A stretch of 30,256 bases of DNA from Pyrinomonadaceae bacterium (GCA_035300785.1 DATGVD010000232.1:1-30256); one strand, 5' to 3'. Shown: positions 8,444 to 15,190, counted from the stretch's first letter. Notes: generated from the letters alone by a model not told the origin. Numbers and translations: made by a program.

Positions 8444-10057
8444 TTGACCAGGAAACATAAAGGAAAAGATTCCGCTAGTAGTGCATCGGCGTGGAGTCCT
8501 CTTAGCGGGTCCGTATTCCGGGCGCTTTGGATCGCAACCGTTATCTCCAACGTCGGAACCTGGATGCAGGACGTAGGGGAATCGTGGTTGATGACCTCGT
8601 TGACTCCCTCGCCAGTCCTCGTGGCGCTGGTAGAAACAGCCGGCAGTCTGCCAGTGGTTCTGGTGGCGCTGCCGGCGGGAGCGCTGGCAGACATTGTCGA
8701 CCGCCGTCGTTTGCTTCTGGTCATGCAAATCTGGATGTTCGTCGCCGCGGGCGCAATGGGTGTCCTCGCGTTGATGGGTCATGTGACTCCCAGCCGCTTA
8801 CTCTGGTTAACCTTTCTTCTGGGCATCGGATCGGCGATGAGTAATCCGGTCTGGCAAGCGATTACTCCTGAGTTGGTTTCTCCATCGGATTTGCCGGCGG
8901 CGATCACGCTGAGCGGCGTCGGCATTAACATAGCGCGGGCAATTGGTCCGGCGTTAGGCGGCCTCATCGTTGCCGCATCTGGCCCATGGGCTGTCTTCTT
9001 GCTCAACGCCGCTTCATTCATTGGAATAATGTTTGTCGTCTATCGCTGGCAACCCGCTCCGCGAAAGAGCAAGCTGCCTCCCGAAGATATGATTGGCGCT
9101 ATGCGTGCGGGCACACGCTATCTGCGCCACTCGCCGGAATTGCAAACCGTTCTGATCCGGAGCGGCATCTTCGTGACTTGCGCGAGCGCCCTCTGGGCGC
9201 TGCTTCCCCAGCAAGCCCGGAGACATTTGGGTCTGGGTTCGTTTGGTTACGGACTGCTTCTGGGTTGTATCGGTTTCGGGGCCCTCATCGGCGCGTGGTT
9301 GCTGCCGAAGTTGCGAGAGCGGCTGTCAACAAATCAATCGGTGGCCGCAGGCACGGTCGTGTTTGGCTTGACCACAATGTCTCTTGCCTATGTGCACTCC
9401 TTTGCAATGCTGGCCGTTACTCTGGCCGGCGGTGGGATCGCATGGATTGTGGTGTTGTCGAATCTGAATGTTGTAGCCCAGACCGTCACACCTTCCTGGG
9501 TTCGGGCGCGGGTCATGGCAGTTTACCTGCTGGTCTTCATGGGCGGTCTGGCTGCCGGTAGCGCCATCTGGGGTTTTGTGGCGGCGCGAGGCGGCGTCTC
9601 AGCCGCGCTGATGTTCGCCGCGATTGGTCTGATCATCGGACCTTTGGCGACATGGCGTTTTCGTCTTGTTGGTAACAACACTTTGTCGCTCACTCCTTCT
9701 ATGCATTGGCCCGAGCCGGTGATGATGATCGATACCGAGGGGTCGGAGGGACCGGCTATTACCCTCGTTGAATTTCGAATAGATCCTAAGACCGCCCCGG
9801 AATTCCTGCAGGCAATGAAAGAGATGAGGCGGATACGTCAGCGCGATGGCGCGATCCGTTGGAACTTACTGCGCGATACAGCGGACCCGCAAAGATACGT
9901 CGAGACCTTTGTCACTGAATCGTGGGCCGATCATTTGCGGCAACACGAAAGAGTCACCGCCGAGAATCGCGAAGTTGAGCAGCGCGCTCAGGCATTTCAT
10001 CTCGGCCCTGAGCCACCGAAGGTAACTCATCTAATCGCGGAAGAAATTCCGGACTGA
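8444..10057 (+). CDS. MFS transporter (MFS_3 / transmembrane secretion effector family) with a C-terminal ferredoxin-like small domain
   Basis: FRALWIATVISNVGTWMQDVG, GALADIVDRRR and ARAIGPALGG motifs, about 12 TM segments, and the tail RRIRQRDGAIRW…YVETF…SWADHLRQHER. The start is estimated at TTG 8444 because the ORF-track extension overlaps rpiB. Confidence 0.88.
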   Translation: MTRKHKGKDSASSASAWSPLSGSVFRALWIATVISNVGTWMQDVGESWLMTSLTPSPVLVALVETAGSLPVVLVALPAGALADIVDRRRLLLVMQIWMFVAAGAMGVLALMGHVTPSRLLWLTFLLGIGSAMSNPVWQAITPELVSPSDLPAAITLSGVGINIARAIGPALGGLIVAASGPWAVFLLNAASFIGIMFVVYRWQPAPRKSKLPPEDMIGAMRAGTRYLRHSPELQTVLIRSGIFVTCASALWALLPQQARRHLGLGSFGYGLLLGCIGFGALIGAWLLPKLRERLSTNQSVAAGTVVFGLTTMSLAYVHSFAMLAVTLAGGGIAWIVVLSNLNVVAQTVTPSWVRARVMAVYLLVFMGGLAAGSAIWGFVAARGGVSAALMFAAIGLIIGPLATWRFRLVGNNTLSLTPSMHWPEPVMMIDTEGSEGPAITLVEFRIDPKTAPEFLQAMKEMRRIRQRDGAIRWNLLRDTADPQRYVETFVTESWADHLRQHERVTAENREVEQRAQAFHLGPEPPKVTHLIAEEIPD

Positions 10058-10188
10058 CATTAGCTGCTGCTTAACCAACCGTTAGGGAGATTAGCTGATC
10101 CTAAAGCCTAAGCCAGGGTCCCAATTGTCAGCGCAAGTAGTGCGAATATGATAAGCCACAGACAATAGTGTCTTAGTTTGGGGATGAG

Positions 10189-10310
10189 GTCAGTATCGGG
10201 AGCGGTAGCGACCGGGTACAAGGCGCAATCTGGCACGGAACCGGTTCTTCGTGGCTGCGTCGTTGCCACAAGCGAGAGTCAACCCGGTCGCTACCGCTCC
10301 CGGTACTGAC
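10189..10310. repeat. REP-like inverted repeat pair (29-bp arms)
   Basis: GTCAGTATCGGGAGCGGTAGCGACCGGGT (10189-10217) and ACCCGGTCGCTACCGCTCCCGGTACTGAC (10282-10310) are reverse complements with 1 mismatch. Confidence 0.85.
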
Positions 10311-10583
10311 GCCATAACTGGAATTTCGGTTATTCTTCTTACAACTACCGCGAGAGCCTGCTGGTGGGACCGCGACCGCAAAATTATCACGCGCACTTGC
10401 CGTACACGTCCCTGCGGTTTTATTTTGGACGAAGAGAGTAAGGACCAGGTCTGCGGAAAAGTCTGAGCCACGTAAACTCCGGCGCGGTTATTGACCGCGG
10501 CTGGAGTTTGCTTATGACCGGCAAACAAACCGTCAGGCGTCGAAGCCGGAAGCGGGAGAACACGAGACCATACGCCGACAATA

Positions 10584-11813
10584 ATGAGGGTCACGCATCC
10601 GGTAATCCTAATGTTCATGGTGGCGGCGTCGGTGATTCTTGTGACGTCGCGCTTTGGCCCGAACGCAGATCAAGCCAGCGCCCAGAGCCGTCGCCCGCAG
10701 AAAAAAGTCGCGACGCCAAAGAAACCTCGCATTGATTACACAAAGTTTTCGCACCAGACTCACGCCGTCACGCAAAAGCTCGCTTGCAGTTCATGCCACA
10801 AAGTTCCCTCGAAGAATTGGAAAGAAGTACGTAAAGGCGACGCCGCCTTTCCGGACGTCAGTGATTTTCCCGAGCATGCCACCTGTTTGACCTGTCATCG
10901 CGAACAATTCTTTGCGCGTGAAAGACCCGCGCCGGCGATTTGCTCGAACTGTCACGTCAACAACAGTCCGAAAGACACCAGCCGCTGGCTGTTTCCCAGT
11001 CTCGGCGACGTTAACGATCCGTTGAAGAAGCGCCGGACATTCGTTTCGGAATTCGGCGTCGGTTTCCCGCACGACAAGCACCTCGACGTCGTAGGCGTTA
11101 ACGCGCCAGCGCCCGGAAGAGATCCGCTCGTTTGGTTCGTGACGGTATCGCTGCAGGAAAAGAAAAAGGACGGTCCGCCAAAGAACTGCCCCGTCTGTCA
11201 CGAGACTTATCGGCCACAGGGTAATTCAAGTGAGGAATTCGTGACCAAGCCGCCGAAGAATATCGGCGATGCTTTCTGGCTAAAGAAGGGCACGTTCAAA
11301 ACCACGCCCAACAGTCACACGGTTTGCTTCACCTGCCACAGCGCCGATTCCGGAATTGCGCCCGCGCCGACCGATTGCAACGTTTGCCATAAACTGTCAT
11401 CGCCCCAGGCATTGAAAGTCGATTTCGAGGCGAAACTGGCGACCACCATGGGGATCACGGATGCAACGATATTGAGCAAATGGAGCCAACGCATTTCCGC
11501 CGGCGCTTTCCGTCATGAAGGCGGAGAGCATCCTGACCTGAACTGCATGGGTTGTCATAACGTGGCGAGTTCTGGGTTCAATACGCTTGATTTGAAGACG
11601 CTGAAGGTTCCAGTGCGGTCGTGCGGCGGCGCGGACGGATGTCACGTCACTGCCACAACCGATGATGGTGGAGCTTTGAATTTTGAAATCGATCAGAAGA
11701 AGAAAGATCCTGGGTTTGTTTGTACAAAGTGTCACGTCACCTTTGGCAAGGAAGGCATTCCCGAAGATCATCCGAAGGCGATTCCGACACCGAAAGCGAA
11801 GACGGCGCTGTAA
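10584..11813 (+). CDS. Secreted nonaheme c-type cytochrome (three c7/c3-like triheme domains)
   Basis: Signal-like N-terminus. Eight CxxCH motifs (CSSCH, CLTCH, CSNCH, CPVCH, CFTCH, CNVCH, CMGCH, CTKCH) plus one CX5CH (CGGADGCH). FxHxxH-type distal-ligand motifs FSHQTH, FPHDKH and FRHEGGEH open each domain. Confidence 0.9.
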   Translation: MRVTHPVILMFMVAASVILVTSRFGPNADQASAQSRRPQKKVATPKKPRIDYTKFSHQTHAVTQKLACSSCHKVPSKNWKEVRKGDAAFPDVSDFPEHATCLTCHREQFFARERPAPAICSNCHVNNSPKDTSRWLFPSLGDVNDPLKKRRTFVSEFGVGFPHDKHLDVVGVNAPAPGRDPLVWFVTVSLQEKKKDGPPKNCPVCHETYRPQGNSSEEFVTKPPKNIGDAFWLKKGTFKTTPNSHTVCFTCHSADSGIAPAPTDCNVCHKLSSPQALKVDFEAKLATTMGITDATILSKWSQRISAGAFRHEGGEHPDLNCMGCHNVASSGFNTLDLKTLKVPVRSCGGADGCHVTATTDDGGALNFEIDQKKKDPGFVCTKCHVTFGKEGIPEDHPKAIPTPKAKTAL

Positions 11814-11818
11814 GGAAC

Positions 11819-12850
11819 ATGAACGACACCGCAAGAAGAGATGAGGCATTGAGTGGGCGTTGGCGGCGGCGTAGGGCTCAGGAGCCCTCTCCCTTTGGGA
11901 GAGGGTTGGGTGAGGGCCTGTCGGCGCCACGCTTCGCGGCCTCTCCCCCTGTCCCTGCCCCTCTCTCAAACGGAGAGGGGGAAAAGCCCTGCGTATCAAT
12001 CCGATCACTCACCGTCGGCGTCGTATTCGTGTGCGCCGTGATCGGATTGACGCTCGTTACTGTTTTGAACTCGCGCGCTTCTGAATCGACGGCTAACTTA
12101 ACCGAATCGCCGACGCCACAGGAGCAGATGCAATTTCCCGAAGGGTTGGATTACGGAAAGTTCCTCCACGGCAGCCGCAACCATTCACGTTTGCCGTGTC
12201 TGCTCTGTCATCGTCGCGACTCGAATTCACCCATTCCGAAACTGCCGGGCGGTTCCAATCACCTGCCCTGCGCCGGCTGTCATGCGCAACAGTTTTCAAG
12301 CTCTGAGAGTCCCATCTGCACCATCTGTCACACCGACGTAAAATCCGGAGCCCTGAAATCGTTTCCTCGTTTGAAGAGCTTTCGGATGAAGTTCGATCAC
12401 TCGCTGCACGTGAAGATGGGCAGCGTCAGTTGTGCGACGTGCCATCGACCGGCGAGTGGTGGCGTTGCCCTCTCGATACCTGCGGGATTCAACGCGCACA
12501 CAACTTGTTATGGATGCCACACCGCGCGCGCGCAATCCGGCGGCCGCGACATCTCTTCGTGTGGCACGTGTCATCAGTTGGGTGGGTATTCCCGAACTTC
12601 CGCGTCGGCCGCAGCCTTCCGCGTGGGATTCAATCATGCCAGGCATCAAAAAGTAACCTGCAACGAATGCCACCAGGTTAGGGCGGGAATGCCGCAACGA
12701 AGACAGGTCACCGCGCCGGAAGCGCTCAACCATCACGCGACGGGTCGCGGGCAAAGCTGCATGACTTGCCACGATGGCAAGCGCGCGTTTGGCGACGATG
12801 ACTTCACAGTTTGTAAGCGGTGCCATACGGCAGCAACGTGGCACTTTTGA
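11819..12850 (+). CDS. Nonaheme c-type cytochrome (three c7-like domains), paralog of the upstream gene
   Basis: ATG at 11819 with AAGGAA RBS, 5 nt after the upstream stop. Hydrophobic segment SLTVGVVFVCAVIGLTLVTVL. Nine CxxCH motifs (CLLCH, CAGCH, CTICH, CATCH, CYGCH, CGTCH, CNECH, CMTCH, CKRCH) with FLHGSRNH, FDHSLH and FNHARH. Confidence 0.9.
   Translation: MNDTARRDEALSGRWRRRRAQEPSPFGRGLGEGLSAPRFAASPPVPAPLSNGEGEKPCVSIRSLTVGVVFVCAVIGLTLVTVLNSRASESTANLTESPTPQEQMQFPEGLDYGKFLHGSRNHSRLPCLLCHRRDSNSPIPKLPGGSNHLPCAGCHAQQFSSSESPICTICHTDVKSGALKSFPRLKSFRMKFDHSLHVKMGSVSCATCHRPASGGVALSIPAGFNAHTTCYGCHTARAQSGGRDISSCGTCHQLGGYSRTSASAAAFRVGFNHARHQKVTCNECHQVRAGMPQRRQVTAPEALNHHATGRGQSCMTCHDGKRAFGDDDFTVCKRCHTAATWHF
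11885..11981. repeat. CCCTCTCCC-type palindromic (REP-like) doublet inside the cytochrome ORF
   Basis: A perfect hairpin CCCTCTCCC-TTT-GGGAGAGGG (11885-11905) followed by TTGGGTGAGGG. A degenerate inverted copy CCCTGTCCCTGCCCCTCTCTCAAACGGAGAGGGG ends at about 11981. Confidence 0.8.
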
Positions 12851-12862
12851 AAAGCAAGAGGT

Positions 12863-12937
12863 GTTCAGAGTACCGACTTTAGTCGGGTATTTGATCGATA
12901 AAAGAAGACAGACCCGACTAAAGTCGGTACTCTAAAC
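12863..12937. repeat. REP-like inverted repeat pair (26-bp arms, each with an internal CCGACT/AGTCGG palindrome)
   Basis: GTTCAGAGTACCGACTTTAGTCGGGT (12863-12888) and ACCCGACTAAAGTCGGTACTCTAAAC (12912-12937) are reverse complements with 1 mismatch. Confidence 0.88.
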
Positions 12938-12955
12938 CACGAAAGGGAGTTCACC

Positions 12956-13537
12956 ATGAAAGTCCTTACAATACTCGCAGCCTTTATTCTTGCGATTTTT
13001 CTGGTCTCGAGCACGACGAAGATCACGACGGACGCATCAGCTCAGGACGGAAAGAAGCCGCCGGAAGTGATCACGCTGGGAGCGGATGCGAAGCTTGGAC
13101 CGGTTAAGTTCAACCACCTCGATCACATCACTAAGAAATGGAGCGCCGACGGTACCGGCCTGATCGCTTGCGTCGAGTGTCACCACACCGCGCAGCCGGC
13201 AGCTGAGGCGCTCAAGCACCCTCCACACAAGACGGCATGGCCGGCGGATCGCACTACCACTTTGACGGCAGAGTTGCTTGAGAAAGATTCTAATGCGGTC
13301 GGTGCTGTTTGTCGCGATTGCCATGCGCGCGCGGATACCAAGCCGAAGCTGCTGCCGGAGATTCCGCAGGTCAAGTTTGAAGGCAGTACAGAGCCGACAG
13401 TCATGACTAACCAACAGGCGTTCCATCGCAGGTGCGGTGACTGCCACGATGAAGCGGTGAAGGCCAGACCGACTTTGGATCCGGCACCGCCAACCTCGAA
13501 GAAGTACCTGCAGTGTCACAAGAAGTCGGCGGCTTGA
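12956..13537 (+). CDS. Periplasmic cytochrome c3 (class III)-like protein with 3 intact heme motifs and 1 degenerate
   Basis: AGGGAG RBS, Sec signal peptide ending ASA-Q, FNHLDH, CVECHH, CRDCH, AFHRRCGDCH and a terminal YLQCH. Confidence 0.88.
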   Translation: MKVLTILAAFILAIFLVSSTTKITTDASAQDGKKPPEVITLGADAKLGPVKFNHLDHITKKWSADGTGLIACVECHHTAQPAAEALKHPPHKTAWPADRTTTLTAELLEKDSNAVGAVCRDCHARADTKPKLLPEIPQVKFEGSTEPTVMTNQQAFHRRCGDCHDEAVKARPTLDPAPPTSKKYLQCHKKSAA

Positions 13538-13615
13538 TTGGCACGGGCCTCTCGCCCGTGAATCACGCTCAGGATCAGGTTGTGATTCCTTGAGAGTCGC
13601 GGGAAGATAGGCGCA

Positions 13616-15190
13616 ATGGGTGAAGCGGTCGACAGGAAAGTACCGGCACTCTTTCATAACTACTCAAGCTTTGCCGGTTTCGCCATCGCCATCGCAAGTT
13701 TGTGCAGCATTATCCTGCTGTTCCTCATTGAACTTACCGGAAGCACCAATACCGCATATCTCGGAATATTCGCTTACGTAATCCTTCCTGCGGGTCTGGT
13801 TTTCGGTCTGGTCGTAATTGGCGCCGGAATGTTACTTGAACGCCGCCGCCGCAGCAGCAGGCTTTCTCCTGCTGAAATTGCCGCGTTTCCCAGAATCGAT
13901 TTCAACAACCCCGGCAGCCGCCGCGCGTTCTTTACCTTCATCGGTCTGAGCATGATTTTTGTTTTCATGAGTGCGTTCGGCAGTTATCGCGCTTTCGAGC
14001 ACACCGAATCGGTAGCCTTCTGCGGGACCACCTGCCACCAGACGATGAAGCCTGAATACGTCGCCTTCCAGGTTTCTTCGCACGCGCGCCTGCGTTGCGT
14101 CGACTGTCACGTCGGTTCGGGTGCGGAATGGTACGCCGGCTCAAAAATTACCGGCGCCTATCAGCTCTATGCCGTCACCTTTAACAAGGTGCCCAGGCCG
14201 ATCACCACGCCGGTTCACAACATGCGGCCGGCCCGTGATACTTGCGAACAGTGTCACTGGCCGGCGAAGTTCTATGGCAATCAATTCAGGAGTCTTACTC
14301 ACTACGCCAATGATGAGCAGAACTCCGCGCGCACTATTCGCTTGTTAGTAAACGTGGGAGGCGGCGACCCCACCACCGGAGCAGTCGCGGGCATTCACTG
14401 GCACATGAACATTGCTAACGAGATCACCTTCATTGGATCTGATGATCATTGGCAGGTAATTCCCTGGATTCGACTTAAGGACAGTCAGGGTAATGTCACC
14501 GAATATACAGATCGAAATCGACCTCCTACTTCTCAGCAGCTGGCCACGGCCGAGAGGCGACGAATGGACTGCATCGATTGTCACAATCGTCCCGCGCACA
14601 TTTACCTGCCGCCCGACGTGGCCGTCGATCAGGGTTTCGTTGCCGGCCGGTTGGATCTTTCGCTCCCGTATCTCAAGCGTCAGGCGGTTGAAGTTCTGAG
14701 CGCCCGATACGACACAACCCCTCAAGCCCTCAGTTCAATTGATAAGGGCCTGAACGAGTACTATCAAACGAACTACAAAGACGTGTACTCAGAAAAGCAG
14801 GCCGCCATCAAGGGCGCCGTCACGGAAGTTCAGCGGATCTTTCAGACTTACTTTTTCCCGGAGATGAAGACCGACTGGCAGACCCACCCAAACAATATTG
14901 GTCATCTTTATTTCTCGGGCTGCTTCCGCTGTCACGACGGCGAGCACGTCAGCAACACCGGCAAAGTTATCACCAACAACTGCAACCTCTGCCACACGGT
15001 AATCTACGACTCGCTTAATCCAGCCGCGTCGGTAAAGACCGGACCATTCCAACACCCGGTTGATCTCGGCTCGCTGGCCGACCGCAAATGCGAGTCTTGC
15101 CACAAAGCTAACAAGCCATTCCAACATCCGATTAATCTTGGTGATATCTCGATGTTCCAGTGTGTTGAGTGCCATTCGCTAAAGAAATGA
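13616..15190 (+). CDS. NapC/NirT-type membrane-anchored octaheme cytochrome c (putative quinol dehydrogenase)
   Basis: Three N-terminal TM segments, FCGTTCH (CX3CH) followed by MKPEY…SSHARLRCVDCHVG as in the NapC/NirT N-terminal domain, then CEQCH, CIDCH, CFRCH, CNLCH, CESCH and CVECH. Confidence 0.88.
   Translation: MGEAVDRKVPALFHNYSSFAGFAIAIASLCSIILLFLIELTGSTNTAYLGIFAYVILPAGLVFGLVVIGAGMLLERRRRSSRLSPAEIAAFPRIDFNNPGSRRAFFTFIGLSMIFVFMSAFGSYRAFEHTESVAFCGTTCHQTMKPEYVAFQVSSHARLRCVDCHVGSGAEWYAGSKITGAYQLYAVTFNKVPRPITTPVHNMRPARDTCEQCHWPAKFYGNQFRSLTHYANDEQNSARTIRLLVNVGGGDPTTGAVAGIHWHMNIANEITFIGSDDHWQVIPWIRLKDSQGNVTEYTDRNRPPTSQQLATAERRRMDCIDCHNRPAHIYLPPDVAVDQGFVAGRLDLSLPYLKRQAVEVLSARYDTTPQALSSIDKGLNEYYQTNYKDVYSEKQAAIKGAVTEVQRIFQTYFFPEMKTDWQTHPNNIGHLYFSGCFRCHDGEHVSNTGKVITNNCNLCHTVIYDSLNPAASVKTGPFQHPVDLGSLADRKCESCHKANKPFQHPINLGDISMFQCVECHSLKK

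Follow-up and report, generated by a model that had tools for sequence, protein, structure and literature searches.

The DNA analysed here is a contig of 30,256 bp from a Pyrinomonadaceae bacterium (GCA_035300785.1 DATGVD010000232.1:1-30256), hereafter the window, which is the whole of contig C232 in a metagenome-assembled genome (MAG) of 682 contigs and 3.66 Mb with 88.7% completeness. It contains four multiheme cytochrome genes, named A, B, C and D, whose open reading frames (ORFs) lie co-oriented on the + strand at 10584-15190 (Table 1). The four products together offer about 30 heme sites, including a conserved CX5CH in A and a CX3CH in D, and 27 of the 28 CxxCH motifs found in a six-frame scan of the 30-kb window fall inside them, a clustering far beyond chance. 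By Pfam, every one of the four products contains c7/c3 domains; A, B and C also possess a single N-terminal signal/anchor helix apiece, and none of the three a lipobox. An NCBIfam search of the four proteins returned no equivalog, every match being far below its cut-off. A preliminary description of this DNA had recognized four co-oriented multiheme genes with about 30 hemes, the first three encoding soluble heme proteins and the last a protein with three transmembrane helices and a NapC/NirT-type domain, and all of this is borne out. It had also presented the genes as a stand-alone and undescribed module; our analysis indicates instead that the locus is a truncated version of a known electron-export cluster, not a new system.

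Table 1. Features of the cytochrome cluster and its upstream border (positions in the window)
Feature	Position	Strand	Description
Miniature inverted-repeat transposable element (MITE)/repetitive extragenic palindromic (REP)-like palindromic repeat	10189-10310		122 nt, 29-nt terminal inverted arms, 28/29 complementary
MtrB-like barrel gene stub	10310-10441	+	last 43 codons and stop
Gene A	10584-11813	+	409 aa, exported nonaheme c-type cytochrome, N-terminal signal/anchor helix
Gene B	11819-12850 (mechanical ORF from 11720)	+	nonaheme cytochrome, putative c7-type triheme domains
Gene C	12956-13537	+	193 aa, small exported c3/c7-like cytochrome
Gene D	13616-15190	+	524 aa, ImcH-family inner-membrane multiheme cytochrome

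ImcH is the inner-membrane quinol oxidase of Geobacter, required there to respire high-potential extracellular acceptors. Levar et al. (2014, PMC4251993) defined it by three putative transmembrane helices, a NapC/NirT-like region and a set of seven heme motifs that begins with a CXXXCH. A survey published in 2018 described proteins of 495-519 aa with 5-9 CxxCH motifs, and an identity of 31.5-49% between the Geobacter ImcH group and outsiders (PMC6295460). D has the same architecture as ImcH of G. sulfurreducens (GSU3259). By the Kyte-Doolittle measure it contains three hydrophobic segments (residues 16-44, 45-75 and 103-124), in blocks that align across 25 diverse homologs, and directly after the third lies the CX3CH motif (CGTTCH, residues 136-141), whose C136, C140 and H141 are invariant in the same alignment. 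Seven CxxCH motifs bring the total to eight heme sites. Seven of these, namely the CX3CH and the six CxxCH at residues 161, 210, 319, 436, 456 and 492, are invariant across the 25 homologs; the six further motifs and a length of ~500-525 aa are likewise common to D and the ImcH family. The eighth, C-terminal CxxCH (residue 516) is an extra of D, limited to close Pyrinomonadaceae relatives. The NapC/NirT-like region is recognized by PF03264 at residues 105-192 (E 4e-9).

End-to-end relatives of D exist in Geobacter itself. A 506-aa protein of Geobacter sp. UBA6151, encoded by a monocistronic gene, is 42% identical to D over 502 aa (E 5e-158). Three Geobacter MAGs and a Desulfuromonadaceae MAG, picked up in a scan of named genomes, encode full-length relatives at 42-43% identity, a value that falls inside the published outsider range and so fits ImcH membership. 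As judged from its sequence, D belongs to the ImcH family over its full length and shares every structural feature of it. The earlier reading of D as a membrane quinol-dehydrogenase-type cytochrome is supported. The label "undescribed" no longer applies, as the family was described in 2014 (PMC4251993) and had already been reported from Acidobacteria, with 19 homologs and c-type cytochrome genes often adjacent (PMC6295460). More than 8000 word-sharing homologs of D, named as NapC/NirT-family proteins, occur in Pyrinomonadaceae and other Acidobacteriota; D matches 746 clusters at the 50% identity level (E<=1e-30), and a homolog is present in 33 of 41 relatives and, more broadly, an ImcH homolog in 97 of the 199 high-quality Acidobacteriota species genomes sampled. 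On the other hand, imcH of Geobacter is monocistronic whereas D closes a cluster of four cytochrome genes, and D belongs to soil Pyrinomonadaceae, which are usually treated as aerobic heterotrophs.

The three genes preceding D encode the putative soluble partners. A has nine heme sites, eight CxxCH and the motif C347-X5-C353-H354, which is invariant in 27 orthologs, and A orthologs are present in 30 related loci. Its comparison with PDB sequences gave no match, and an AlphaFold2 model built with the 27 orthologs was unusable (mean predicted local distance difference test, pLDDT, 44; predicted template modelling score, pTM, 0.21). In B, which carries nine CxxCH, Pfam Cytochrome_C7 matches in three stretches, and the protein matches PDB 3ov0 (E 5e-11). 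The start codon of B is uncertain because of a REP-like insertion in its 5' region (repeat at ~11885-11920).

These proteins recall the GSU1996-type multi-domain c7 and PpcA-type c7 cytochromes of Geobacter (PDB 3OV0, 3H4N), for which a role as a periplasmic relay or "capacitor" has been proposed. The likeness lies in the three c7-type stretches and the 3ov0 match of B and in the c7/c3 domains of C and A. It has limits, since GSU1996 has twelve hemes and B nine, and B scores 34.2 bits against TIGR04257, below the cut-off of 40. Such a relay or capacitor role would fit A, B and C as well.

As for C, the assembly gives three CxxCH and a fourth motif reduced to YLQCH: an A at position 13506 turns the codon at 13505-13507 into TAC (Tyr184), so that the first cysteine of the fourth heme motif is lost. 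The same position is G (TGC, Cys) in an independent metagenome contig of the Joint Genome Institute (JGI; L041) and in contigs of four soil metagenome runs, restoring the fourth CxxCH, and C homologs in Pyrinomonadaceae clusters always have four. The degenerate heme of the preliminary description is therefore real in this assembly and absent from the population, in which C is likely a tetraheme protein, Tyr184 being either a rare variant or an assembly/consensus error of the MAG.

The surroundings of D homologs were compared over 8 to 10 kb on either side in 20 related genomes and at 82 other loci. The prevailing order in Pyrinomonadaceae is a 10-heme cytochrome, a gene here called X, in some cases a 9-heme protein, then A, B, C, optionally a CbcL-like gene, and D. 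The 10-heme protein (~340-360 aa) matches 6r2q chain A (333 aa) over its full length (E 1e-31); we take this chain to be MtrA, and its molecule label, "Cystathionine beta-synthase", looks wrong. X is a heme-free protein of 750-790 aa with a cleavable signal peptide and, in distant members, a C-terminal aromatic beta-signal. A Pfam scan of X from relatives found no family at E<0.01, the MtrB_PioB model included. Its AlphaFold2 model is a large all-beta barrel (pLDDT 80, pTM 0.71) with MtrB (6r2q_B) as best PDB match (E 3e-15, TM-score 0.61/0.69), as against ~0.35-0.45 for TonB-dependent transporters. On this fold match and on its context, X is probably an MtrB-like outer-membrane barrel.

The clusters of the congeners thus begin with an MtrA homolog and an MtrB-matching barrel, as in the MtrAB/PioAB/MtoAB modules represented by the Mtr complex (6R2Q), except that the barrel family beside imcH goes unrecognized by Pfam MtrB_PioB. 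No MtrC-like lipoprotein gene was seen. CbcL-like genes (9-13 hemes with Ni_hydr_CYTB) adjoin the ImcH homolog at many Acidobacteriota loci and in some congeners, the version in the Pyrinomonadaceae clusters having nine hemes and a cytochrome b561; this resembles CbcL of G. sulfurreducens, a nonaheme plus a diheme cytochrome b. No CbcL-like or cytochrome b gene was found in the window or beside A-D. The partners of D homologs comprise MtrAB-like pairs, CbcL-like and other multiheme genes, and regulators of the sigma54/PAS-kinase and Crp families. The 2018 survey reported no mtrAB or mtoAB adjoining imcH (PMC6295460), and the joining of imcH with mtrAB-like genes in one cluster in Pyrinomonadaceae is a mildly new observation that updates it.

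Some particulars of single congeners may be added. Regulatory genes adjoin the cluster in congeners (L022:13776-17022; L028:11-784 and 9555-12200): downstream of it are genes for a sigma54-dependent response regulator and a PAS-type histidine kinase, and in one congener a Crp/Fnr-type regulator precedes it. None of these regulators adjoins the cluster of the window. In another congener (L030:13847-16123, equal to L048:3417-5693 on the same contig) X is split into ORFs of 327 and 431 codons, which could mean that the conduit was inactivated independently a second time.

In the window, the decaheme gene and 94% of X are missing. What is left of X is the stub of Table 1, which lacks a start codon and is immediately preceded by a stop codon, so that the preliminary description, which saw no porin sequence at all, needs correcting on this point. 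A tblastn search with the 754-aa X of locus L022 gave a sole match in the genome, at 10196-10438 of the window, and the homology is clear over 10310-10438, where the stub shares 81% identity with residues 712-754 of X from locus L042, the nearest intact one. By nucleotide alignment the homology to X begins one base past the 122-nt palindromic element, whose arms lie at 10189-10217 and 10282-10310. The element has three full-length copies, its arms recur on 46 contigs of the genome, and the depth of metagenome contigs spikes over it. Since the homology starts at the edge of the element, the breakpoint lies at a mobile or repeated element.

We considered whether a chimeric contig had caused the missing porin, and this was ruled out by L041, which has the same junction. 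L041 is 99% identical in nucleotides over 3637-25187 of the window and preserves the order GH15, RpiB, MFS_3, stub, A, B, C, D and downstream genes. Logan contigs from four soil runs break at the repeats (10164 or 10287) and leave the MFS-stub junction unbridged; the stub and A are covered. The related locus L042, whose D is 90% identical, shares the downstream flank with the window and retains A and B together with an intact decaheme gene and an intact X. There (L042:9554-17228), D points the opposite way to A and B, and in place of C a gene for a 109-aa monoheme Cytochrome_CBB3-type protein precedes ImcH. These comparisons point to a rearrangement-prone locus whose conduit-bearing form is ancestral, and to the absence of the porin as a secondary loss in this lineage by repeat-associated deletion. 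The "stand-alone" design is accordingly to be revised, as A-B-C-D of the congeners follow MtrA-like and MtrB-like genes that have been deleted here. The retention of such a truncated derivative in this lineage is mildly new.

The remaining surroundings agree with the preliminary description, which placed an MFS gene on one side and convergent small genes on the other. Upstream of the cluster are TPR, GH15, RpiB and MFS_3 genes; downstream are the convergent small genes (RpoZ-like, STAS), followed by HTH, B12-radical SAM and pyrimidine genes. Short repeated or palindromic elements of several families occupy the DNA ahead of A and the three spacers (A-B, B-C and C-D), in stretches at 10189-10310, 11885-11920, 12860-12935 and 13539-13575. 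Over the first three of these the depth of metagenome contigs increases 30- to 100-fold (the C-D one is unresolved), and assemblies break there.

Elsewhere in the genome, contig C530 (1-2999, locus L123) carries a 372-aa 10-heme MtrA-like gene followed by a barrel gene that is cut off by the end of the contig. The barrel reaches 199 bits against Pfam MtrB_PioB, and barrels of this type occur in 9 of the 41 genomes of the genus; its decaheme neighbour is 28% identical to the cluster-type decaheme. The option raised in the preliminary description, that the operon feeds a porin-cytochrome complex encoded elsewhere, is hence viable. The futalosine-pathway menaquinone genes and two heme-copper oxidases are also present, and at least 13 ORFs in the assembly hold two or more CxxCH.

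Several other multiheme genes of this genome were noticed in passing. Paralogs of B (47% identity) and C (39%, four hemes) lie at C395:148-3364 and C263:1-3527, beside genes for ~500-aa proteins with an apparent N-terminal FHA-like domain (by eye), one transmembrane helix and seven CxxCH; the two seven-heme FHA-like proteins are 44% identical to each other. The 1391-aa ORF at C338:4490-8662 has nine CxxCH followed by a long C-terminal stretch that looks rich in repeats, and the 760-aa ORF at C590:4896-7175 has five CxxCH and a seemingly TPR-like C-terminus, both judged by eye.

Taken together, the locus is probably what remains of a Geobacter-type extracellular electron transfer (EET) cluster, its inner-membrane and periplasmic half, after deletion of the conduit genes. 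The mechanism proposed here is based on genetic work in Geobacter (PMC4251993) and on c7/c3 cytochrome chemistry. D, held by its three transmembrane helices, would oxidise menaquinol at the periplasmic face of the inner membrane and pass electrons to the exported low-potential proteins C, with four hemes, B, with three putative c7-type triheme domains, and A, with nine hemes, which would serve as a periplasmic relay or store. In the congeners, the MtrA-like/MtrB-like pair would then carry the electrons across the outer membrane; here the exit might be the MtrA/MtrB_PioB pair on C530, or soluble acceptors that reach the periplasm.

Several points weigh against this reading. The direction of electron flow is taken over from Geobacter genetics only, the Geobacter sequences compared with D all come from MAGs, GSU3259 not being among them, and the connection of A-D to the C530 pair is one that we infer. 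A search of RNA runs gave only two metatranscriptome runs, with ~4% of the sampled words. Searches of the 88.7%-complete, 682-contig assembly for the maturation genes CcmC/CcmF, CcmE and ResB gave no match, so that of the genome content looked for in connection with the preliminary description, the porin and menaquinone synthesis came to light and the maturation genes did not. This gap is uninformative because the assembly is incomplete and fragmented and CcmF and CcmC are present in five of five congeners; most likely the ccm operon is missing from the assembly only. Finally, the ratios of nonsynonymous to synonymous substitution rates (dN/dS) against L041, 0.29 for A, 0.31 for B and 0.22 for C, are based on 4-12 substitutions per gene.

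It is possible, and we put this forward tentatively, that the inner half is a self-sufficient module kept under constraint after the loss of the conduit, acting as a periplasmic electron sink or capacitor in oxic-anoxic swings or as a reductase for soluble acceptors such as humics and chelated Fe(III). If true, the inner half would do without an adjacent outer-membrane channel, and the truncated lineage would be a natural experiment. A different direction of flow, in which extracellular Fe(II) or reduced humics donate electrons that travel inward by way of MtrAB-like conduits and periplasmic cytochromes and D reduces the quinone pool, appears unlikely to us. Its model is the mtoAB-mtoD-cymA cluster of Sideroxydans. 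The logic of the ancestral cluster does resemble Mto/Pio, with an MtrA homolog, an MtrB-like barrel, periplasmic cytochromes and an inner-membrane NapC/NirT-like cytochrome, and two heme-copper oxidases in an aerobic lineage would suit it. However, low-potential bis-His carriers of the c7/c3 type fit outward transfer, and Fe(III) reducers are so far the only organisms in which ImcH homologs have been reported, with quinol oxidation as the only role ascribed to them (PMC6295460).

That A-D are a decaying relic, useless after the conduit deletion and drifting toward pseudogenes, we hold to be very unlikely, although the decaheme gene and most of the barrel gene are gone, repeats have invaded the region upstream of A and all three spacers, C lacks a heme cysteine in this assembly and the search for ccm genes in it gave nothing. 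The four ORFs are all intact and full length, and the dN/dS of A, B and C stays at 0.2-0.3. With three congeners as outgroup, unique amino-acid changes are not accelerated relative to the conduit-bearing L042 lineage (A, 15 in the window lineage vs 20; B, 3 vs 6; D, 16 vs 10), and the remaining genes still look constrained, with no sign of relaxation. The cysteine loss in C is absent from L041 and from the four metagenome populations, the truncated layout persists in soils, the stretch occurring in 20 DNA runs from 16 soil studies, and the genome has a second MtrAB-type pair. Barely credible is the suggestion that D is an ordinary quinol dehydrogenase of the NrfH/NapC/CymA type, serving a reductase (Nrf, Nap or Tor) encoded elsewhere with A-C as accessory carriers. 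The similarity of D to NapC/NirT and NrfH, within residues 105-215 (PDB NrfH 2j7a_C, E 4e-4), speaks for it, yet D reaches only 50.6 bits against the NrfH model TIGR03153 (E 2e-13; cut-off 134.2), 15.1 against NapC (349) and 15.8 against napC_nirT (310.6), and is far under the TorC equivalog cut-off as well. Those tetraheme proteins have a single transmembrane helix and four hemes, whereas D has three helices, eight heme sites and an end-to-end alignment with ImcH. A known terminal reductase near the homologs, which the preliminary description had named as evidence against its proposal, was looked for, and none appeared in ~100 homologous neighbourhoods; a terminal-reductase partner for A-D was rejected on this gene content.

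On the preferred reading, that of an EET cluster stripped of its conduit genes, soil Pyrinomonadaceae would widely carry a complete Geobacter/Shewanella-style route in one gene cluster, leading from ImcH, often together with a CbcL-like protein, through periplasmic c7-type cytochromes to an MtrAB-like outer-membrane conduit. The conduit can go by repeat-associated deletion while the inner half stays, which is a small evolutionary point. The occurrence of an ImcH homolog in about half of the sampled Acidobacteriota genomes bears on the share that this phylum may have in the reduction of iron and humics in soil.

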